Shown: one piece after another, positions 1,543 to 55,608 of the stretch | Layout: every line of letters begins with the position of its first letter | Position numbering within the stretch: the stretch's first letter is position 1 | Assembly: GCF_058153355.1 (NCBI RefSeq) | Contig: NZ_CM177019.1 | DNA: 64,000 nt | Strand: one strand, 5' to 3' | Program-made: the position numbers and the translations under genes | The notes under the pieces: model-generated | The model's database searches: none | What the model was told of the DNA's origin: nothing | What the model saw: only the letters and a program-made list of their open reading frames with translations

Positions 1543-2376
1543 TCATTTTGCTGATAACGCTGACGGATAGTGCTTCGCCACAATGTCATTCATCTTATCC
1601 ACCAGATCCAGTCGCTTGAATGTGATGTGTCCACTGCCTTTCTGGTAATAGCGGATGACAAATAAATCGTCATTAAATACCTGCTCATGCGGGTGAGCAC
1701 TAACGAAGTCCATAAACCGAATCGCAACATCATGCCGGTTATCGGGAATGGCCTTCCCATCCAGCAGATAGAACATCCGTTCCAGATCGGCAAGCTGATC
1801 TCGCCGCCAGCCCCAGTGCAGGCTGTAACCCCATCGGTCATGCTTCACCAGATTGTTAACGATAATCTTCTTACCGAAATAACAGGGATTATTGGTTTTG
1901 TAATCCCAGCTCAATCCCTTAAATACATTGATAATCCCACGTTCGAAAACGTCATGCTTATTGTGGTGGAGTTGTTCAAAGGTACTCAGGATGTTGGCTT
2001 CGCTAATCGCCGGGAGATCGCCCTCCTCCAGGTTCTTTGCCCACTGACTGCGGGCTTCGGCATCCATCAGAGTCAACATCCCGGACTTCAGCATGAGATC
2101 GCGCCAGATGCTGCGATCGATATTGCGGGTGATCGCCGACATCGCTTTGTCGGTTGGTTGCATCAGCCAGCAGTCAAAGGCATATCCATTACGCATTCCC
2201 CAGGTTCCAGCCACATCACCGCCAATACTGGATGTCAGACTGGAGATATCATCCAGTTTTTGGATTAGCGTCGCTATCAGCTTCAGTGCGCTATCACGTC
2301 CTGTGACGATACGCTCAATATTGGTCGAGCGAATTATCTCGTTGTGATCGGTTAAGACTTCAGCTTCTGTTTGCAT
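1543..2376 (-). CDS. Hypothetical protein, 277 aa, function unknown; lies between the McrB-like gene and the divergently transcribed hsdM
   Basis: Longest ORF in the interval and same strand as the McrB-like gene 358 bp downstream. I see no nucleotide-binding or methyltransferase motif. The plus-strand ORFs overlapping it (1687..2268, 2093..2347) look like antisense shadows. Confidence 0.45.
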   Translation of the reverse strand: MQTEAEVLTDHNEIIRSTNIERIVTGRDSALKLIATLIQKLDDISSLTSSIGGDVAGTWGMRNGYAFDCWLMQPTDKAMSAITRNIDRSIWRDLMLKSGMLTLMDAEARSQWAKNLEEGDLPAISEANILSTFEQLHHNKHDVFERGIINVFKGLSWDYKTNNPCYFGKKIIVNNLVKHDRWGYSLHWGWRRDQLADLERMFYLLDGKAIPDNRHDVAIRFMDFVSAHPHEQVFNDDLFVIRYYQKGSGHITFKRLDLVDKMNDIVAKHYPSALSAK

Positions 2377-2682
2377 AATCTTTCATCCGTAAAAAAATAC
2401 ACTCGCCGTTAGTAGCAGACGGATTATCCTCTGGTGAAAGATTGGGTAAATAATGAGATTGAAAATCGGGAAGGTGACTCGCAATAAATTATCTGATCAC
2501 CTACGGATGGACGATGGGCATATAAAATAGCCTCCTGACTCAAACGGTGAATGCTGAATAAGATGCACTAACAATCTGGTACTGAATCCCCTCCTCACCG
2601 TCATACAAATCTGAAAAACCAAAAAACTTCCGGTAAAATCCCGGCAAAAGCCGACGTTAAAAACACATTCAAAGGATAAAAA

Positions 2683-4239
2683 ATGACCAGTCTTCAGCAG
2701 CGCGCGGAGCTTCATCGCCAAATCTGGCAAATTGCTAACGATGTCAGAGGTTCGGTCGATGGATGGGATTTTAAGCAATACGTTCTGGGCGCGCTTTTCT
2801 ACCGTTTTATCAGCGAAAATTTTTCCAGCTATATTGAAGCCGGTGATGACAGCATCTGTTATGCGAAACTGGATGACAGCGTAATTACTGATGACATTAA
2901 AGACGATGCCATCAAAACCAAAGGCTACTTCATCTACCCAAGTCAGCTTTTCTGCAACGTAGCTGCGAAAGCAAATACCAATGACAGACTGAACGCAGAT
3001 TTAAACAGCATCTTCGTTGCTATCGAAAGTTCTGCTTACGGTTACCCTTCAGAAGCTGACATCAAAGGTTTGTTTGCTGATTTCGATACCACCAGTAACC
3101 GCCTGGGTAATACCGTTAAGGATAAAAATGCCCGCCTGGCCGCGGTTCTGAAAGGGGTTGAAGGGTTAAAGCTTGGCGACTTTAACGAACATCAGATTGA
3201 CCTGTTCGGCGATGCCTATGAGTTCCTGATTTCTAACTATGCGGCGAATGCCGGTAAGTCAGGCGGCGAGTTCTTTACACCGCAGCACGTCTCTAAGCTG
3301 ATTGCACAACTGGCTATGCACGGGCAGACCCACGTTAACAAAATCTACGACCCGGCAGCGGGTTCCGGTTCGCTGTTGTTGCAGGCTAAAAAGCAGTTTG
3401 ATGACCACATCATCGAAGAAGGTTTTTTTGGTCAGGAAATCAACCATACGACCTATAACCTGGCGCGTATGAACATGTTTTTGCACAACATCAACTACGA
3501 CAAGTTTGATATCAAGTTGGGCAATACGCTGACTGAGCCGCACTTCAGAGATGAAAAACCGTTTGACGCCATCGTATCTAACCCACCGTATTCGGTGAAA
3601 TGGATAGGCAGCGATGACCCGACGCTGATTAACGATGAACGTTTTGCCCCGGCTGGCGTCCTGGCCCCCAAATCAAAAGCTGACTTCGCCTTTGTACTAC
3701 ATGCGCTGAACTATCTTTCTGCCAAAGGTCGTGCTGCGATTGTCTGCTTCCCGGGTATTTTTTACCGTGGCGGCGCAGAGCAGAAAATCCGTCAGTATCT
3801 GGTTGATAATAACTATGTCGAAACCGTGATTTCACTGGCTCCGAACCTGTTCTTTGGCACCACCATTGCCGTCAATATTCTGGTGTTGTCTAAACATAAA
3901 ACCGATACCAAAGTTCAGTTTATTGACGCCAGCGAACTATTCAAAAAAGAGACTAACAACAACATTCTGACCGATGCCCATATCGAACAGATTATGCAGG
4001 TATTTGCCAGCAAGGAAGATGTTGCTCATCTGGCGAAATCTGTCGCGTTTGAGACCGTTGTCGCTAATGACTATAACCTGTCGGTAAGCAGCTATGTGGA
4101 AGCGAAAGATAACCGCGAAATTATCGATATCAGTGAGCTGAATGCTGAGCTGAAAACCACGGTCAGCAAAATCGACCAGTTGCGTAAAGATATTGATGCG
4201 ATTGTGGCTGAAATTGAAGGCTGCGAGGTGCAGAAATGA
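2683..4239 (+). CDS. hsdM: Type I restriction-modification system DNA methyltransferase subunit M (type IC-like)
   Basis: 518-aa ORF with an N6-adenine methyltransferase NPPY motif ([11 protein letters not shown]) and the AdoMet-binding region ([11 protein letters not shown]). RBS aaaggat sits upstream of the ATG at 2683. The stop overlaps the hsdS start (ATGA at 4236-4239). Confidence 0.9.
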
Positions 4240-5390
4240 ACGAGTTGAGTTATCTGGAAAAATTACTGGATGGGGTTGAGGTTGAGTGGTTGCCATTGGC
4301 TAAAGTTTGTCGTTTAATAAACGGGAGAGCATATAAGCAAGAAGAACTGCTTTCCAAAGGCAAATATCCAGTATTAAGAGTCGGTAATTTTTTTACTAAC
4401 CAAAATTGGTATTACTCAGATTTAGAATTAGATCAAGACAAGTATTGTGATAACGGTGACCTTTTATATGCTTGGTCCGCATCATTTGGTCCAAGAATTT
4501 GGCATGGGGGTAAATCTATTTACCATTATCACATATGGAAAGTGGTTCCAGATTCGAATCTTATTTGTAAACAGTTTCTATATTACTTGTTACAATGGGA
4601 TACTAAAGCACTTAAAGATGCACATAGCACTGGTTCTACTATGATGCACATCAGCAAAACTACAATTGAAAAAAGGTTAGTCCCCATCCCCTGCCCGGAT
4701 AATCCGGAAAAATCCCTTGCCATCCAGTCTGAAATCGTTCGGATTCTGGATAAATTTACTGCACTTACCGCTGAGCTTACCGCTGAGCTTAATATGCGAA
4801 AAAAACAGTACAACTACTATCTCGACCAGTTACTGAATCTTGAGGGTAGGGAAAATACTCGAGAAATGAGGATAGGTGATATTTATGATTTTCAGTATGG
4901 AACAGGCAATACAATTCCTAAATCTGGAGGGCAATATCCTGTTTATGGTAGCAACGGGATTGTAGGCTCCCATGACAAATATAACAGCGAAGACTCACCT
5001 GTTATTGGCCATATAGGTGCTTACGCAGGAATCGTTAACTGGGGCCAGGGTAAGCATTTTGTTACATACAACGGAGTTATTTGTAGGCACAAATCGAAGG
5101 AAGTTCTTCAAAAATACGCCTACTATTTATTACTTTTACAAGATTTCGGTTCAAAATCTAATAGTGCATCACAGCCTTTTGTTTCATATAACATATTAAA
5201 TGCTCCTATTGTTTTGGTTCCCCCTTTACAAGAGCAAGCTCGTATCGTCGCAATACTCGATAAATTCGACACCCTGACCAACTCCATCACCGAAGGTCTT
5301 CCGCGTGAAATCGAGTTGCGCCAGAAACAATACGAGTACTATCGTGATTTACTGTTCAGTTTCCCAAAACCTGAAACTCTCAGTAATTAA
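4236..5390 (+). CDS. hsdS: Type I restriction-modification system specificity subunit S (type IC-like, two target-recognition domains)
   Basis: 384-aa ORF translationally coupled to hsdM. It has two AT-rich variable regions separated by a conserved central region containing TAEL repeats, plus a conserved C-terminal region ([30 protein letters not shown]), as in EcoR124-type HsdS. Confidence 0.85.
4767..4790 (+). repeat. Two tandem copies of a 12-bp repeat ACCGCTGAGCTT (encoding TAEL-TAEL) in the central conserved region of hsdS
   Basis: Direct reading: accgctgagctt accgctgagctt at 4767-4790. In type IC HsdS, the copy number of this repeat is known to set the spacer length of the recognition sequence. 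Confidence 0.85.
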
Positions 5391-5511
5391 TTGACCATTA
5401 TTACAGACCGGACCATCTTAATATCCGGTCAGTATATAGACTATTTTTTACACGCCGGAAGTCACCATTAACCCCCTTCCGGCCCTTGCCAGACGGCACA
5501 AAGGATGCGCT

Positions 5512-8500
5512 ATGACTCATCAAACACACACCATTGCTGAATCCAATAACTTTATCGTTCTTGATAAGTACATCAAAGCTGAGCAAACAGGCGACAGCTA
5601 TCAGAGCGAATCGGACCTGGAACGTGAACTGATTCAGGACCTGCAAAATCAGGGCTATGAATTTATACCCGTAAAATCACAGTCAGCGATGCTGGCCAAC
5701 GTTCGGGAACAGCTTCAGAGCCTCAATGGTGTGGTGTTTAATGACAGCGAGTGGCGGCGTTTCACGGAGCAGTATCTGGATAACCCGAGCGATGGCATTC
5801 TGGATAAGACCCGTAAAATCCATATCGACTATATTTGCGACTTTATTTTTGATGACGAGCGACTTGAGAACATCTATTTGATAGATAAAAAGAATCTCAT
5901 GCGCAATAAGGTGCAGATTATCCAGCAGTTTGAACAGGCGGGTTCCCACTCTAACCGCTATGATGTCACGATCCTGATTAATGGCTTACCACTGGTACAA
6001 ATCGAACTGAAAAAGCGCGGCGTGGCGATTCGTGAGGCTTTCAACCAGATACATCGTTACAGTAAAGAGAGTTTTAACAGCGAAAATTCCCTGTTTAAGT
6101 ATCTGCAACTGTTTGTCATTTCTAACGGCACCGATACCCGTTACTTTGCCAACACCACAAAGCGCGATAAAAATAGTTTTGACTTCACCATGAACTGGGC
6201 GAAATCAGACAACACGCTGATTAAAGACCTCAAAGATTTTACCGCTACCTTTTTCCAGAAACATACTCTGCTTAATGTTCTGGTGAACTACAGCGTGTTC
6301 GATATTAGCCAGACGCTACTGGTGATGCGACCGTACCAGATTGCCGCCACCGAACGAATCTTATGGAAAATCAACAGCTCCTATAAAGCGAAAAACTGGT
6401 CTACCCCCGAAAGCGGTGGCTTTATCTGGCACACCACCGGTTCCGGTAAAACCCTGACCAGCTTTAAAGCTGCGCGTCTGGCAACAGAGCTGGACTTTAT
6501 TGATAAAGTCTTCTTCGTGGTCGACAGAAAAGACCTCGATTACCAGACCATGAAGGAATATCAGCGTTTTTCGCCAGATAGTGTTAACGGTTCGGAAAAT
6601 ACCGCAGGCCTGAAACGAAATCTGGATAAGGACGATAACAAAATTATCGTCACCACTATTCAGAAACTTAATAACCTGATGAAAGCAGAAAGCGACCTGC
6701 CTGTATACAATCAGCAAGTGGTGTTTATATTTGATGAATGTCACCGCAGCCAGTTTGGAGAAGCGCAGAAAAACCTGAAGAAGAAATTCAAACGCTATTA
6801 TCAGTTTGGTTTTACCGGCACACCTATTTTCCCGGAAAACGCTTTAGGCTCAGAAACGACCGCCAGCGTATTTGGTCGTGAATTGCATTCGTATGTGATT
6901 ACCGATGCGATTCGTGATGAAAAAGTGCTCAAATTCAAGGTGGACTATAACGATGTGCGGCCACAATTTAAGTCTTTAGAGACAGAAACCGACGAGAAAA
7001 AACTGAGTGCGGCTGAAAATCAGCAGGCGTTTCTTCATCCCATGCGTATACAGGAAATTACGCAATATATTCTGAATAACTTCCGCCAGAAGACCCACCG
7101 TACTTTCCCAGGTTCCAAAGGCTTTAATGCCATGCTGGCAGTGAGTAGCGTGGATGCCGCGAAAGCCTATTACGCGACGTTTAAACGGTTACAAGAGGAA
7201 GCCGCTAATAAATCTGCTACCTATAAACCACTACGTGTTGCGACAATCTTCTCCTTTGCCGCTAATGAAGAACAAAATGCCATTGGTGAAATTTCCGATG
7301 AAACTTTTGATACCAGCGCAATGGACAGCAGTGCTAAAGAGTTTCTCGACGCTGCAATTCGTGAATATAACAGCTATTTTAAAACTAACTTCAGTACCGA
7401 CAGTAACGGTTTTCAGAACTACTATCGTGATTTAGCCCAACGGGTTAAAAATCAGGATATCGATCTGTTAATTGTCGTTGGGATGTTTTTAACCGGCTTC
7501 GACGCTCCAACATTGAACACGCTATTCGTCGATAAAAACTTGCGTTTTCACGGCCTGATGCAGGCATTTTCCCGCACCAACCGCATTTATGACGCCACTA
7601 AAACCTTCGGTAACATCGTCACTTTTCGGGATCTGGAACGCTCAACCATTGATGCCATAACGCTGTTTGGTGATAAAAATACCAAAAATGTGGTGTTAGA
7701 AAAGAGTTATGCCGAGTATATGGAAGGCTTTACAGATGCTGCCACTGGTGAAGCTAAACGCGGCTTTATGGCAGTAGTTTCAGAACTGGAACAACGGTTC
7801 CCTGACCCTGCCAGTATTGAAAGTGAAAAAGAGAAGAAAGACTTCGTTAAACTGTTTGGTGAATACCTGCGCGCCGAGAACATCCTGCAAAACTATGATG
7901 AATTTGCCACGCTGAAAGCCCTGCAACAAATCGATCTTAGCGATCCTGTTGCGGTAGAAAAATTCAAAGCAGAACATTATGTGGATGATGAAAAGTTTGC
8001 TGAATTACAAACGATTCGTCTCCCTGCTGAACGTAAGATTCAGGATTATCGTTCGGCCTATAACGATATTCGTGACTGGCAGCGCCGCGAGAAAGAAGCT
8101 GACAAAAAAGAAAAATCAACCACTGACTGGGATGACGTGGTTTTTGAGGTCGATTTGCTGAAGTCTCAGGAAATAAACCTGGATTATATCCTTGGACTGA
8201 TTTTCGAACACAACAGACAAAACAAAGGTAAGGGCGAAATGACCGAAGAGGTCAAACGCTTAATTCGTTCGAGCCTTGGGAACCGTGCCAAAGAAGGCCT
8301 GGTGGTCGATTTTATTCAACAAACGAACCTGGATGATTTGCCGGATAAAGCCAGTATCATTGACGCGTTCTTTATCTTTGCTCAACGCGAACAGCAACGT
8401 GAAGCAGAAGCGTTGATTAAAGAAGAAAATCTCAATGAAGAAGCAGCGAAACGCTATATTCGCACGTCTTTAAAACGCGAATACGCCACCGAAAATGGCA

Positions 8501-8628
8501 CAGAATTAAACGAGACGTTACCAAAACTTAGTCCGTTAAACCCGCAATATAAAACGAAAAAACAGACGGTTTTCCAGAAGATCGTCGCGTTTATTGAGAA
8601 GTTTAAAGGTGTAGGCGGGCAGATATAA
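5512..8628 (+). CDS. hsdR: Type I restriction enzyme endonuclease/helicase subunit R (type IC-like, 1038 aa)
   Basis: 1038-aa ORF with SF2 helicase motifs (Walker A TTGSGKT, DEAH-like [10 protein letters not shown]). The length matches type IC HsdR such as EcoR124I as I recall it. A 121-bp gap after hsdS leaves room for its own promoter. Confidence 0.9.
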
Positions 8629-8852
8629 TGTATTAATCCGAACCTGATCTGGCAGATAGCTGTCAGATCAGGACTGAGCTAATACAAATTAATATCGAAC
8701 CGAAAATACCAACGCCTGTACCAACATTTTTCGTTTGCGATGGGTTGAAATTGGTTGGCTCTGAGAGAGTTAAAATAGCGAGAAAGATAGGTAACTAATG
8801 GATCCCAGACACAAAAAAAGCCGCCCTTGAGCGACTCGATTTGCATACGATG

Positions 8853-8937
8853 TGGTGCCGAAGGCCGGACTCGAACCGGCACGTATTTCTACGGTTGATT
8901 TTGAATCAACTGCGTCTACCGATTTCGCCACTTCGGC
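8853..8937 (-). tRNA. leuX: tRNA-Leu (anticodon CAA)
   Basis: The minus-strand sequence GCCGAAGTGGCGAAATCGGTAGACGCAGTTGATTCAAAATCAACCGTAGAAATACGTGCCGGTTCGAGTCCGGCCTTCGGCACCA has acceptor stem, D-loop, anticodon loop UUCAAAA (anticodon CAA), the long variable arm of a class II tRNA, T-loop GGTTCGAGTCC and 3' CCA. Confidence 0.92.
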
Positions 8938-9132
8938 ACTGAAGAGGTATGCGGAAAACGTTGTGGATTATACCTGTCGCACGCCACCATGCAAGCGCCA
9001 GCTTGCACCCACTTTGCTAAGTGCTGAAATTTTCAGCATTGCATACCGCGATGTGTAACCTTTGTCACACTCCAGGCACCCCGCCCTACCATGCTCTACA
9101 CTTCCCAGACAACACCAGAGAAGGACAAAAAT

Positions 9133-10218
9133 ATGTCGATGATAAAAAGCTATGCCGCAAAAGAGGCTGGCGGCAAACTGGAAGTTTATGAGTACGATCC
9201 CGGTGAACTGAAGCCACAAGATGTCGAAGTGCAGGTGGATTACTGCGGGATCTGCCATTCCGATCTGTCGATGATCGACAACGAATGGGGATTTTCACAG
9301 TATCCGCTGGTTGCCGGGCATGAGGTGATTGGGCGCGTGGTGGCGCTCGGGAGCGCCGCGCAGGATAAAGGTTTGCAGGTCGGTCAGCGTGTCGGGATTG
9401 GCTGGACGGCGCGAAGCTGTGGTCACTGCGATGCCTGTATTAGCGGTAATCAGATCAACTGCGAGCAAGGTGCGGTGCCAACAATTATGAATCGCGGCGG
9501 TTTTGCCGAGAAGTTGCGTGCAGACTGGCAATGGGTGATTCCACTGCCGGAAAATATCGATATCGATTCCGCCGGGCCGCTGCTGTGTGGTGGTATCACG
9601 GTCTTCAAACCACTGTTAATGCACCATATCACTGCCACCAGCCGCGTTGGGGTAATTGGTATTGGCGGGCTGGGGCATATCGCTATAAAACTTCTGCACG
9701 CAATGGGATGCGAGGTAACGGCCTTTAGTTCTAATCCGGCGAAAGAGCAGGAAGTGCTGGCGATGGGTGCCGATAAAGTAGTGAATAGCCGCGATCCGCA
9801 GGCACTGAAAGCACTGGCGGGGCAGTTTGATCTCATTATCAACACCGTCAACGTCAGCCTCGACTGGCAGCCTTATTTTGAGGCGCTGACGTATGGCGGT
9901 AATTTCCATACAGTCGGCGCGGTCCTCACGCCGCTGTCTGTTCCGGCCTTTACGTTAATTGCGGGCGACCGCAGCGTCTCTGGTTCAGCAACAGGTACAC
10001 CTTATGAGCTGCGTAAGCTGATGCACTTTGCCGCCCGCAGCAAGGTTGCGCCGACTACCGAACTGTTCCCTATGTCGAAAATTAACGACGCCATTCAGCA
10101 TGTACGCGATGGTAAAGCGCGCTACCGAGTGGTCCTGAAAGCCGACTTCTGCTCCCTTTGCCGGGTGCCTGTCGCCCGGCTTTTAAATCTCTTTGGAAGG
10201 CGTCTCGCAATCTGCTGA
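9133..10218 (+). CDS. ahr: NADPH-dependent aldehyde reductase Ahr (zinc-dependent alcohol dehydrogenase family); the ORF runs about 22 codons past the expected C-terminus
   Basis: ORF starting [14 protein letters not shown] with the Zn-ADH motif GHEVIG and the NAD(P)-binding GxGxxG (GVIGIGGLG). The expected end ...[10 protein letters not shown] is followed here by [22 protein letters not shown] before the stop. Confidence 0.8.
10160..10184 (+). terminator. Putative rho-independent terminator hairpin (GCCGGG..CCCGGC then TTTT) at the ahr 3' end
   Basis: Inverted repeat gccggg/cccggc followed by a T run, seen directly. It lies inside the extended ahr reading frame. Confidence 0.45.
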
Positions 10219-10281
10219 ATTTAGCGGTGAAGAGTGCGCAGCCGTTGCCTATACTCCAGGCAGGAAACTGGAGGAAATCTC

Positions 10282-11784
10282 ATGAGCGAACCCCTGTTAA
10301 TTGCCCGCACGCCGGACACAGAACTGTTTTTACTGCCGGGAATGGCTAACCGTCACGGGCTGATTACTGGCGCAACGGGGACGGGTAAAACCGTTACGCT
10401 GCAAAAACTGGCAGAGTCATTGTCGGAAATCGGTGTTCCGGTGTTTATGGCCGATGTGAAAGGTGATTTAACGGGAGTAGCGGAGGAAGGTACATCTTCG
10501 GAAAAACTGCTCGCAAGGCTGAAAAATATCGGCGTCAATGACTGGCAACCACATGCTAATCCGGTGGTGGTGTGGGATATCTTTGGCGAGAAAGGCCACC
10601 CGGTGCGGGCGACGCTTTCAGACCTGGGGCCGCTGTTGCTGGCGCGACTGTTGAATCTCAACGATGTGCAATCTGGCGTGCTGGATATCATCTTCCGCAT
10701 TGCTGATGATCAGGGGCTGTTACTGCTCGACTTTAAAGATTTGCGGGCGATTACCCAGTACATCGGCGATAACGCCAAATCCTTCCAGAATCAGTACGGT
10801 AATATCAGTAGCGCATCGGTTGGTGCCATCCAGCGCGGGCTGTTATCGCTGGAACAGCAAGGCGCAGCACACTTCTTTGGTGAGCCGATGCTGGATATCA
10901 AAGACTGGATGCGTACCGATACCAACGGTAAAGGCGTTATCAATATCCTCAGCGCCGAGAAGCTTTATCAGATGCCGAAACTGTACGCCGCCAGCCTGCT
11001 GTGGATGCTTTCAGAGTTATATGAACAATTGCCTGAAGCGGGCGATCTGGAGAAACCAAAACTGGTGTTTTTCTTCGACGAAGCACATCTGCTGTTTAAC
11101 GATGCACCGCAGGTACTGCTGGATAAGATTGAGCAGGTGATAAGGCTTATTCGCTCAAAAGGCGTGGGCGTCTGGTTCGTTTCGCAAAACCCGTCAGATA
11201 TCCCGGATAACGTGCTCGGGCAGCTCGGTAATCGCGTTCAACACGCTTTGCGTGCTTTTACGCCTAAAGATCAGAAAGCAGTAAAAGCTGCGGCGCAAAC
11301 CATGCGGGCCAATCCGGCGTTTGATACCGAAAAGGCAATCCAGGAACTGGGGACCGGCGAGGCGTTAATCTCGTTTCTCGATGCGAAAGGAAGCCCTTCA
11401 GTGGTGGAACGGGCGATGGTGATTGCCCCCTGTTCACGAATGGGGCCGGTGACGGAAGATGAGCGTAACGGCCTGATTAATAACTCCCCGGTGTATGGCA
11501 AGTACGAGGATGACGTGGACCGGGAATCCGCCTATGAGATGTTGCAAAAAGGCTTTCAGGCCAGTACCGAGCAGCAAAATAATCCTCCCGCGAAAGGGAA
11601 AGAGGTGGCGGTGGATGACGGTATTCTTGGTGGATTGAAGGATATTTTGTTTGGCACTACCGGACCACGCGGCGGGAAGAAAGATGGTGTGGTGCAAACA
11701 ATGGCGAAAAGCGCCGCCCGCCAGGTGACGAATCAGATTGTGCGTGGTGTGCTGGGGAGTTTGCTGGGGGGGAGAAGAAGGTAA
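10282..11784 (+). CDS. yjgR: Putative ATPase YjgR (DUF853 family P-loop NTPase)
   Basis: 500-aa ORF starting [20 protein letters not shown] with Walker A GATGTGKT. The ATG at 10282 is preceded by ggaggaa. Confidence 0.85.
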
Positions 11785-19411: not shown

Positions 19412-20190
19412 ATCTCTTACAGAAATGGTAAAGAAGGCATAACTCCCCGAGAAATACTGGCTAAGAAGCCTTTATCTGGTTGTTCTTCTTTATTGATTAA
19501 AGGAAGGTCATCCAAATCGCCCAGCAAATACGTATTTTTTGCCTGCCAGTCAATCATCCATATTTTCAACAGTGGATAAGCCAGACCGCCCGTAATCCCG
19601 GATATCACCACCAACGCACACATGCGATAAAGCATACCGTGGTACGTTAAAGTTGAGCGAAAACGAATACGCCCATCATTCAGTGACAGGTTGCTCATAA
19701 AATGGTTTCGCAACGACACCGTTAAATAACTGGTGCTAACAGCAATCCCAAAATAATAGATTAACTGCGCGATTATCATTTTACGTTGCATTTCCATAAA
19801 TTGCTGTAAATTCTCAATGTCATCATTTGCATATACAGAACTATCATACGCATTTAATATTTGATCGAAGATAATATAACCAGCAACAGCGAGAAAAGGC
19901 AATAAAGCTAAAAATGCGAGAATGGCATATTTTATACAATACGTAGTATCTAATTTCACCTTGAAACGATGTATACCGAAACTGGTATTGCTCCAGAGAA
20001 AACTCATTACCAGACTATATAAAGTACCATTAAAAATACCAATGGAAACAATACCAACTATTGCCATCAGAACCATAGATATAATAACACTACTTGAACT
20101 ATTGGCATGTAGCATCTTTGTCGAGATAAAGAAAACAGTCCCCATCCCAACGGCCATTAAAATCGGCAAGAAAAAGGTCACCCACCAGAG

Positions 20191-21616
20191 TAATGCCGAT
20201 CAGTTAAGGATCAGTTGACCGATCCAGTGGCTGTGTAAGAATCCGGAAACGCTCACTTGTTTCCGGATTTTTTTATGCACATTGGACAGGCTCTTGATCT
20301 GGTATCCCGTTACGATTCTCTGCGTAACCCACTGACTTCTCTGGGGGATTACCTCGACCCCGAACTCATCTCTCGTTGCCTTGCCGAATCAGGTACTGTA
20401 ACGCTACGCAAGCGCCGTCTTCCCCTCGAAATGATGGTCTGGTGTATTGTTGGCATGGCGCTTGAGCGTAAAGAACCTCTTCACCAGATTGTGAATCGCC
20501 TGGACATCATGCTGCCGGGCAATCGCCCCTTCGTTGCCCCCAGTGCCGTTATTCAGGCCCGCCAGCGCCTGGGAAGTGAGGCTGTCCGCCGCGTGTTCAC
20601 GAAAACAGCGCAGCTCTGGCATAACGCCACGCCGCATCCGCACTGGTGCGGCCTGACCCTGCTGGCCATCGATGGTGTGTTCTGGCGCACACCGGATACA
20701 CCAGAGAACGATGCAGCCTTCCCCCGCCAGACACATGCCGGGAACCCGGCGCTCTACCCGCAGGTCAAAATGGTCTGCCAGATGGAACTGACCAGCCATC
20801 TGCTGACGGCTGCAGCCTTCGGCACGATGAAGAACAGCGAAAATGAGCTTGCTGAGCAACTTATAGAACAAACCGGCGATAACACTCTGACGTTAATGGA
20901 TAAAGGTTATTACTCACTGGGACTGTTAAATGCCTGGAGCCTGGCGGGAGAACACCGCCACTGGATGATACCTCTCAGAAAGGGAGCGCAATATGAAGAG
21001 ATCAGAAAACTGGGTAAAGGCGATCATCTGGTGAAGCTGAAAACCAGCCCGCAGGCACGAAAAAAGTGGCCGGGACTGGGAAATGAAGTGACAGCCCGCC
21101 TGCTGACCGTGACGCGCAAAGGAAAAGTCTGCCATCTGCTGACGTCGATGACGGACGCCATGCGCTTCCCCGGAGGAGAAATGGCGGATCTGTACAGTCA
21201 TCGCTGGGAAATCGAACTGGGATACAGGGAGATAAAACAGACGATGCAACTGAGCAGGCTGACGCTGAGAAGTAAAAAGCCGGAGCTTGTGGAGCAAGAG
21301 CTGTGGGGTGTCTTACTGGCTTATAATCTGGTGAGATATCAGATGATTAAAATGGCGGAACATCTGAAAGGTTACTGGCCGAATCAACTGAGTTTCTCAG
21401 AATCATGCGGAATGGTGATGAGAATGCTGATGACATTGCAGGGCGCTTCACCGGGACGTATACCGGAGCTGATGCGCGATCTTGCAAGTATGGGACAACT
21501 TGTGAAATTACCGACAAGAAGGGAAAGGGCCTTCCCGAGAGTGGTAAAGGAGAGGCCCTGGAAATACCCCACAGCCCCGAAAAAGAGCCAGTCAGTTGCT
21601 TAACTGACTGGCATTA
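20191..21616 (+). mobile_element. Insertion sequence IS4 (1426 bp) with 18-bp imperfect terminal inverted repeats and a 12-bp target-site duplication
   Basis: Left end TAATGCCGATCAGTTAAG; right end reverse complement TAATGCCAGTCAGTTAAG (16/18 match). Direct repeats CACCCACCAGAG at 20179-20190 and 21617-21628. Confidence 0.9.
20275..21603 (+). CDS. insG: IS4 transposase (DDE family)
   Basis: 442-aa [30 protein letters not shown]..., spanning almost the whole element. Confidence 0.9.
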
Positions 21617-54358: not shown

Positions 54359-54889
54359 ATGAGCTTACTCAACGTCCCTGCGGGTAAAGATCTGCCGGAA
54401 GACATCTACGTTGTTATTGAGATCCCGGCTAACGCAGATCCGATCAAATACGAAATCGACAAAGAGAGCGGCGCACTGTTCGTTGACCGCTTCATGTCCA
54501 CCGCGATGTTCTATCCGTGCAACTACGGTTACATCAACCACACCCTGTCTCTGGACGGTGACCCGGTTGACGTACTGGTCCCGACTCCGTACCCGCTGCA
54601 GCCAGGTTCTGTGATTCGCTGCCGTCCGGTTGGCGTTCTGAAAATGACCGACGAAGCTGGTGAAGATGCGAAACTGATTGCTGTTCCGCACACCAAGCTG
54701 AGCAAAGAATACGATCACATCAAAGACGTTAACGATCTGCCTGAACTGCTGAAAGCACAGATCGCTCACTTCTTCGAGCACTACAAAGACCTCGAAAAAG
54801 GCAAGTGGGTGAAAGTTGAAGGCTGGGAAAACGCAGAAGCCGCTAAAGCTGAAATCGTTGCCTCCTTCGAGCGCGCAAAGAATAAATAA
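54359..54889 (+). CDS. ppa: Inorganic pyrophosphatase
   Basis: 176-aa [35 protein letters not shown]..., with DGDPVDVL. Confidence 0.95.
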
Positions 54890-55237
54890 GTTCTTCTAGT
54901 GCCATAACCCTGAACGCCGGGCTTCGGTTAGTAAGGGTTTTTTATGCCCGCGATAAATAAACTCTCTATTCCCCTATCATTATTCTCAGCGCTTGCAAGG
55001 CTTGAACGGTAAGAACAAGCAAACACGACCACCATTTTGCTGTTCATAGCCGCTTGCTGGAAATTAGCCGACCTCACTCATTCTCACCGTTCAAAGCATG
55101 CCCCCGTTTTACCCCTACGTAATTGTGAACGCCAGCAGAGTTTTTTATGCGTTTACGGATATGGAAAGCGGCTCGGAGAGAAAAGCTAAAGATAGGGAAG
55201 TTACAAAAAAAATCGCGAGATACATCGCATAAAACAA

Positions 55238-55264
55238 CGCCACCCGAAGGTGGCGTGCTTTTAT
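55238..55264. terminator. Bidirectional terminator between ppa and ytfP
   Basis: cgccacccgaaggtggcg hairpin flanked by A/T runs. Confidence 0.6.
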
Positions 55265-55266
55265 TA

Positions 55267-55608
55267 TTACTTATCCCTGTCTAACCAGTCGCCGCTTTCA
55301 ATTAGCTTTAATCCATCGACGGGTCGTTGATAAACGTACATCCATGCACTCCCGTACGGCGTCTGAATCAACTGGCGCGCATATTCACCGCCCCTGGTGC
55401 GCAAGGCATCAAGTTCGGCCAGCGTGGCGTTGTCAATACGATAAACTTCACCGTGTACTGTTCCGTTCCCCGGAACTGCGCCTGGATAGTGGCCCAGGCT
55501 ATACAACTGGTAGTTATCGATACTGAAATCGCCCAGTAACTGGGCATTGGTCATCCAGTGACTGTTGCCTTGTTTGTGGCGTAAACTGCCGTAGACAAAT
55601 ATTCGCAT
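55267..55608 (-). CDS. ytfP: Gamma-glutamylcyclotransferase family protein YtfP
   Basis: 113-aa ORF, MRIFVYGSLRHKQGNSHWM... (YGSL motif). Confidence 0.88.
   Translation of the reverse strand: MRIFVYGSLRHKQGNSHWMTNAQLLGDFSIDNYQLYSLGHYPGAVPGNGTVHGEVYRIDNATLAELDALRTRGGEYARQLIQTPYGSAWMYVYQRPVDGLKLIESGDWLDRDK

Follow-up and report, generated by a model that had tools for sequence, protein, structure and literature searches.

Within the 64,000-nucleotide stretch of DNA analyzed here (the window), the gene ahr (yjgB) carries TGC in place of its stop codon, and its reading frame continues for 22 codons into what is intergenic DNA in related strains. The explanation favored here, with a probability of roughly 0.78, is a private point mutation on an ordinary idn-less minority haplotype, the 'TTTT' haplotype, which yields an Ahr of 361 aa and is independent of the idn polymorphism. 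That the stop loss is a real mutation and not an error is considered quite probable. The change is strain- or lineage-private and represents a textbook stop-loss extension, and the allele, although previously unrecorded, is unremarkable.

The window represents a chromosome segment of the E. coli type, with the gene order leuX, ahr, yjgR, lptG, lptF, pepA, valS and onward. Upstream of ahr, leuX encodes tRNA-Leu(CAA) on the minus strand (8853-8937; ARAGORN, and Rfam tRNA with 59 bits); it lies at the same place in K-12 and other strains and serves as a synteny anchor. The canonical ahr CDS of 339 codons occupies 9133-10149 on the plus strand, ends with ...KADF and encodes a Zn/NADPH-dependent aldehyde reductase, as assigned by Pfam and PDB 7BU2. 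Downstream, on the plus strand, yjgR is intact (10282-11784) and contains the HerA-like C-terminal domain (DUF853; Pfam HerA_C, E = 3e-252). In comparison to K-12 it is of full length; 69 codons differ synonymously and 9 non-synonymously.

Reading of the sequence together with the ORF list revealed that the ahr frame, beginning at 9091 or at 9133, stays open up to 10218. With the K-12 start MSMIKS (9133) as its first codons, it comprises 361 codons and ends at the next in-frame TGA (10216-10218, plus strand), which is kept in the relatives. The K-12 gene has 1,020 nt, and the K-12 protein has 339 aa with the C-terminus KADF. In the window, codon 340 (10150-10152, plus strand), where the stop should follow ...KADF, reads TGC and thereby encodes Cys; alignments and 41-mer counts identify the change as a private A-to-C at 10152. 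According to the ORF list and its translation, the C-terminal extension (10150-10215, plus strand) consists of this Cys and 21 further residues derived from former intergenic DNA.

These observations agree with the initial annotation, which had described an ahr frame running 22 codons past ...KADF through a hairpin. The sequence, the ORF list and an exact translation confirm this, and its K-12 Ahr of 339 aa ending in KADF was borne out by the reference, which lacks the extension. Its positions had to be adjusted: the changed codon is 10150-10152 with the variable base at 10152, instead of 10151-10153, and the yjgR start at 10282 lies 63 nt after the new ahr stop, instead of 60 nt.

The relatives aligned were the idn-less genomes VE-V11-M, O157:H7 TR01, SA186 and 2013C-4282, and on the idn+ side MFDS1022581 as well as both K-12 boundaries. 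All of them, idn-less and idn+ alike, possess TGA at ahr codon 340, and PGAP annotates ahr at 1,020 nt in each idn-less genome opened. SA186 and 2013C-4282 are idn-less, have kept the TGA and encode an Ahr of 339 aa; over window positions 10123-10218 they are the same as the window at 95 of 96 positions, the sole mismatch being 10152 (A to C). A sense codon at the position of the orthologues' stop, within flanks that are otherwise collinear, is the feature of a stop-loss allele. At the level of the sequence, a single A-to-C transversion at 10152 is supported as the cause of the ahr stop loss (UGA to UGC). The initial annotation had offered a stop-codon loss from TGA to TGC as one option and had proposed an alignment to K-12 and to idn-less genomes; in this alignment the window alone has TGC and the rest have TGA, so that this option stands, with TGA in every relative inspected and the 96 nt otherwise identical in SA186 and 2013C-4282.

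The distribution of the allele was followed with a 41-mer in which each 28-base seed crosses the stop site, using a set of 5,426 complete E. coli genomes. The TGA version is present in 2,592 of these 5,426, and the TGC, TGT and TGG versions in 0/5,426 each; the test needs an exact 28-mer over the site, and about 620 idn-less genomes (3,211 minus 2,592) together with all idn+ genomes lie outside it. The TTTT that follows the hairpin stem in the window marks a minority haplotype found in 48 complete genomes, while most idn-less genomes have ACTT at this place. The R298H marker near the TTTT haplotype is common to 46 complete genomes.

Searches beyond the complete genomes gave a similar picture. 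None of the exact window proteins of 361, 375 or 339 aa was present in a collection of 15 billion proteins. The same collection contained none of nine hypothetical stop-loss alleles on the O157 and SA186 backbones, whereas the 339-aa control was present. Scans of JGI metagenome DNA for the allele, run without a positive control, gave no match. In species-representative genomes (GTDB) there was no match with the patterns used, and since the TGA versions were equally unmatched this result is uninformative.

A unique allele raises the question of a sequencing, assembly or consensus error, in which case the organism would have TGA and a 339-aa Ahr. The absence of the allele from the complete genomes, from the 15-billion-protein collection and from the JGI metagenome scans fits to such an error, and a single-base substitution is the simplest artefact. 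The surrounding sequence, however, is of good quality. All 38 K-12 orthologues with a full-length, gap-free alignment are intact, with no internal stop and no frameshift. They all end on a stop and together display 1,226 synonymous versus 101 non-synonymous codon differences. In lptG, lptF and pepA only synonymous differences are found in comparison to four reference strains. Within ahr, the changes private to the window against six references are 9567 (E145D), 9717 and 10071 (both synonymous) and 10152. All four lie at third codon positions, and for the other private changes this is as in real divergence. The 41-mer across E145D is likewise absent from all complete genomes.

Furthermore, an 8-kb core stretch of the window reaches a best identity of 98.4% to any of the 5,426 complete E. 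coli genomes, and identity to K-12 amounts to 95-97.5% gene by gene, with 94.7-99% for the core genes of the whole window. The source lineage seems to be poorly represented in, or at the edge of, sequenced E. coli. Therefore, private SNPs are to be expected, roughly one per hundred bases. With a distance of at least 1.6% to every complete genome, genuine private SNPs are much more frequent, base for base, than plausible errors. The uniqueness of the allele is no evidence of an error, because a rare lineage would be unique either way. An artefact at 10152 is thus judged unlikely, albeit not negligibly so, and the private point mutation is the preferred explanation.

One sequence outside the window resembles the extended allele. 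A search with the last 60 residues returned a single tailed match, a 65-aa ORF (P0001) on L005, a metagenome contig of 597 bp with 1x coverage (ENA ERZ15609738 NODE_169573). At positions 285-287 of this contig TGT (Cys) replaces the ahr stop, and a tail of 22 residues follows in the same frame. Its haplotype differs from that of the window: it is idn-less but has ACTT past the stem, in which a T is changed to A, and its other differences, with the alignment read by eye and without a script count, are mostly synonymous. A 41-mer derived from L005 had no match in the complete genomes, a test that is weak owing to several private SNPs within the 41-mer. The contig may represent an independent ahr stop loss or an error, and it is weak evidence for recurrence. 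The Cys shared by window and contig is unremarkable, because 2 of the 8 sense codons one step away from TGA encode Cys. A protein of 354 aa from the Ahr cluster (P0053), another candidate for an extended allele, was rejected, since it is an N-terminal frameshift variant that ends with KADF.

The lost stop lies directly beside the idn presence/absence polymorphism. In K-12, idnK-idnDOTR are located between ahr and yjgR. The initial annotation had noted that this cluster is missing at the ahr-yjgR junction, and this is correct: the 64-kb window contains no idn DNA except 39 nt upstream of yjgR, which are common to both haplotypes. The implication in its title that this absence is notable has to be withdrawn, since ahr adjoins yjgR in 3,211 of the 5,426 complete E. 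coli genomes (59%) and is thus in the majority state. In addition, the variable presence of idnK has been published, with idnK absent in ST131 lineages (PMC5369007).

Homology between idn+ and idn-less sequences ends right after the ahr TGA and resumes about 40 nt 5' of the yjgR start; K-12-type matches span just positions 1-246/252 and 344-594 of the query. Between these points, alignment to K-12 delimits an 89-bp segment specific to idn-less strains (10153-10241), instead of which K-12 has about 5.1 kb with idnK-idnDOTR. No counterpart of this 89-bp segment was found inside the K-12 idn region.

The changed base is therefore 1 nt from the indel boundary, at a stop after which homology breaks off immediately. 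This would suit a junction scar, as the initial annotation had also considered, where the deletion or insertion that removed or never delivered idn destroyed the ahr stop. The identical junction, however, is present with an intact TGA in 2,592 complete genomes, SA186 and 2013C-4282 match all other bases of the 96-nt stretch, and the idn+ haplotype likewise has TGA. This option is refuted, and the scar is next to impossible. Recombination between idn+ and idn-less sequences as the source of the C was rejected as well, since both haplotypes have A at 10152. With the C in neither haplotype and TGA in both, the stop loss is neither an indel scar nor a recombination product.

The border of the idn-less block can be followed into ahr itself. 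In the variant table, six sites within the last 8 ahr codons (10128-10149, plus strand) differ synonymously between idn-less and idn+ references. At 5 of the 6 sites the four idn-less genomes are split from both idn+ references (K-12 and MFDS1022581), and 10143 differs in MFDS1022581 only. The window has the idn-less states in these codons. Because of these synonymous differences, an old, diverged haplotype block linked to idn appears to extend about 25 nt into ahr. The 5' 990 nt of ahr, on the other hand, are nearly identical to the idn+ strain MFDS1022581. The window ahr is thus a mosaic, near-identical to an idn+ strain from 9133 to about 10122 and of the idn-less type at its 3' end.

Further differences to other strains are present elsewhere in the window. 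On the far side of leuX, the window has a DUF4942 gene on the minus strand (1543-2376) as well as a type I restriction-modification system (hsdM 2683-4239, hsdS 4236-5390, hsdR 5512-8628), the C-terminus of HsdR being EcoR124-like (type IC). These genes (1543-8628) immediately adjoin the 3' side of leuX, and no integrase gene separates them from it, whereas other strains have an integrase beside leuX and MFDS1022581 has yjhR there. An IS4-family element (20190-21616; ORF 20257-21603, plus strand; Pfam Nterm_IS4 and DDE_Tnp_1) with the terminal inverted repeats TAATGCC...GGCATTA interrupts yjgN. K-12 yjgN aligns on both sides of the element, and the two alignments share about 11 bp (CACCCACCAGAG), which is consistent with a target-site duplication. 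The yjgL counterpart (24538-26205, minus strand) is strongly diverged and aligns to K-12 in its 3' 1,080 nt only, at 80% identity and with 45 gaps; its 555-aa ORF has a SopA-like Pfam match that is sub-threshold only. Between ppa and ytfP (54889-55267), the K-12 toxin-antitoxin genes chpS-chpB are either missing or degenerate, with a match to chpB over 100 nt only, at 76% identity.

Past the former stop, the extended frame crosses a GC-rich hairpin. The terminator scan and folding place this candidate intrinsic ahr terminator at 10160-10184 on the plus strand, inside the frame. In the scan, the hairpin itself (10160-10180) consists of a stem of 8 bp, 7 of which are G-C, and a loop of 5 nt, and TTTTAAATCT comes next; the T-run (TTTT, 10181-10184) corresponds to 4 U only, UUUU and then AAAUCUCUUU. 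Folded alone, the hairpin reaches -15.6 kcal/mol (z = -4.4), a stability attained by 0 of 200 shuffles, while its 61-nt context folds no better than shuffles (z = -0.7). The terminator pattern scan returned 2 sites versus 0.9 expected from shuffles. The initial annotation had taken the hairpin for the likely ahr terminator, which is plausible; against a terminator function stand the fold of the 61-nt context and the ACUU that the majority idn-less haplotype has in place of the U-run. The old ahr stop lies 7 nt 5' of it, and the new stop starts 31 nt past the U-run (10216 versus 10184).

In haplotypes with TGA and ACTT, folding predicts a longer structure in which the stop codon is paired in an additional helix outside the hairpin (-20.7 kcal/mol, z about -2 to -2.5). 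The TGC and TTTT changes of the window abolish this predicted outer pairing (10153-10241 versus L001 (VE-V11-M) 3254-3342). A consensus yjgR promoter was not found in the ahr-yjgR spacer, and therefore ahr and yjgR are possibly partly co-transcribed in idn-less strains.

The extension itself has a net charge of +4, three Cys and the rare codons CGG (twice), AGG, GGA and TTA. Judged from these rare codons and its composition it is typical of non-coding DNA and bears no signature of a history of selection as protein. Past residue 335 of the extended Ahr no Pfam matches were found.

A functional role of the region would require a different view: UGA would act as a site of read-through or of the selenocysteine type, signaled by the hairpin, and UGC would be its Cys version, or the tail or the translation through the hairpin would be adaptive, for example by coupling ahr and yjgR. 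Such a role would fit to the stable hairpin that starts 7 nt after the UGA, to the lack of a consensus yjgR promoter between the genes, and to the contig L005, where TGT and a tail in the same frame occur on another haplotype. Also, the frame past the TGA is open to the same downstream TGA in most idn-less genomes. However, this frame is not conserved: in VE-V11-M the loss of 1 nt from the hairpin loop disrupts it, and in idn+ genomes the sequence past the ahr stop is unrelated and reaches its next stop after 7 codons. The rare codons and composition look non-coding, none of the 5,426 complete genomes has a sense codon on the window haplotype, and the contig, at 1x coverage, adds a Cys whose coincidence is weak (2/8 one-step sense codons). 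For a SECIS-type element, no Rfam match at E <= 1 was obtained in 8700-10600 except the tRNA. Selenocysteine insertion or programmed UGA recoding is rejected on the basis of the non-conserved frame, the missing Rfam match and the non-coding codon content, and a functional role in general is very improbable.

The same low credence is given to a recurrent, tolerated or favored stop loss (TGC, TGT), in which translation of the hairpin abolishes a weak ahr terminator, couples yjgR, encoding a HerA-like ATPase, to ahr and adds a new tail that is basic and Cys-rich. If it were true, this would be a small natural case in which C-terminal coding sequence arose de novo and an ORF captured a terminator. 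The private, singular mutation is preferred, and its consequences are considered in the following.

Two Pfam domains are present in Ahr, ADH_N (GroES-like, PF08240, E = 2.8e-25) and ADH_zinc_N (Rossmann, PF00107, E = 1.7e-25). Residues 1-340 of the window protein match PDB 7BU2, the E. coli YjgB structure with a chain of 347 residues, at E = 4e-231. For YjgB, Cys41, His63, Glu64 and Cys152 are the catalytic Zn ligands, and Ser199 and Lys204 select for the NADPH 2'-phosphate (PMC7287880). The window protein retains C41, H63, E64 and C152 as well as S199, K204 and R332. With the catalytic and NADPH-binding residues conserved, the catalytic core is, as far as the sequence can tell, intact. What the window protein does not share is the length of 339 aa with a terminal ...KADF, as it has 361 aa; this is a defect at the level of the allele, and the orthology stands.

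In mechanistic terms, ribosomes would pass the UGC and translate 22 codons of former intergenic sequence up to the UGA at 10216-10218. Messages reaching beyond 10218 would be translated into an Ahr of 361 aa whose tail is basic, hydrophobic and Cys-rich. Transcripts that end at the hairpin would have no in-frame stop, which would lead to ribosome stalling, tmRNA tagging and degradation, and thereby to less Ahr. Termination within an ORF has been reported to create non-stop mRNA, which is then dealt with by trans-translation (PMC4824070).

Ribosomes crossing the hairpin would also be expected to lower termination, and read-through into yjgR might change, albeit to a small degree at most. Termination has been described as "almost fully repressed" where the terminator lay a few bp past a stop, whereas about 40% of the efficiency was retained where it was placed late in the coding region, with 38 bp between U-tract and stop (PMC4824070). 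The change in read-through is possibly small, because the old stop was located 7 nt before the hairpin, a spacing at which the terminator of that system was already repressed by terminating ribosomes.

On the protein side, YjgB with a C-terminal His6 has been expressed, crystallized, including an NADP complex, and analyzed as a dimer (PMC7287880), and because of this the Ahr C-terminus should be able to carry an appendage. The most likely net effect on Ahr would be neutral to mildly reduced activity (neutral-to-hypomorphic). Ahr is non-essential and one of several aldehyde reductases of E. coli (cf. PMC3684718). Due to this, no strong phenotype is expected.

For annotation, gene callers will report an Ahr of 361 or 375 aa for the genome of the window, and the stop-loss allele deserves a curator flag. 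If real, it also offers a small natural test of an ORF extension through a terminator-like hairpin, with a tailed protein on the one hand and non-stop mRNA with tmRNA tagging on the other. Its importance beyond annotation is little, and the absence of idn is no special event.

In comparison to known idn-less E. coli (O157:H7 TR01, SA186, 2013C-4282 and VE-V11-M), the window has the same leuX-ahr-yjgR-lptG-lptF order and the same 89-bp segment. All of these genomes, however, have TGA, and the window is off the nearest haplotype by one base, 10152.

At the protein level, the window Ahr is orthologous over residues 1-339 to E. coli K-12 Ahr/YjgB (b4269; 7BU2/7BU3), a CAD-like MDR NADPH-dependent aldehyde reductase. 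Both have the same domains, Zn ligands, NADPH residues and position next to leuX, and differ by four substitutions (E15K, R27K, E145D and R298H). In addition, Cys stands in place of the stop and 21 more residues follow it, which among the Ahr sequences inspected is otherwise seen only in the 65-aa ORF of L005.

The arrangement of hairpin and new stop has a similar geometry to the tR2 W38p construct (Li et al., 2016, PMC4824070), in which the terminator is located in the late coding region and the stop follows 38 bp after the U-tract. Here, tR2 is a proven and strong terminator, whereas the window terminator is predicted only and has a short U-tract.

Stop-loss (non-stop extension) mutations display the same pattern as the window allele, that is, one changed stop base and a tail of unselected, rare-codon-rich intergenic sequence. 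In contrast to typical examples, the extension of the window crosses a terminator-like hairpin, and mRNAs ending there would be true non-stop mRNAs, as judged from the work on terminators within ORFs (PMC4824070).
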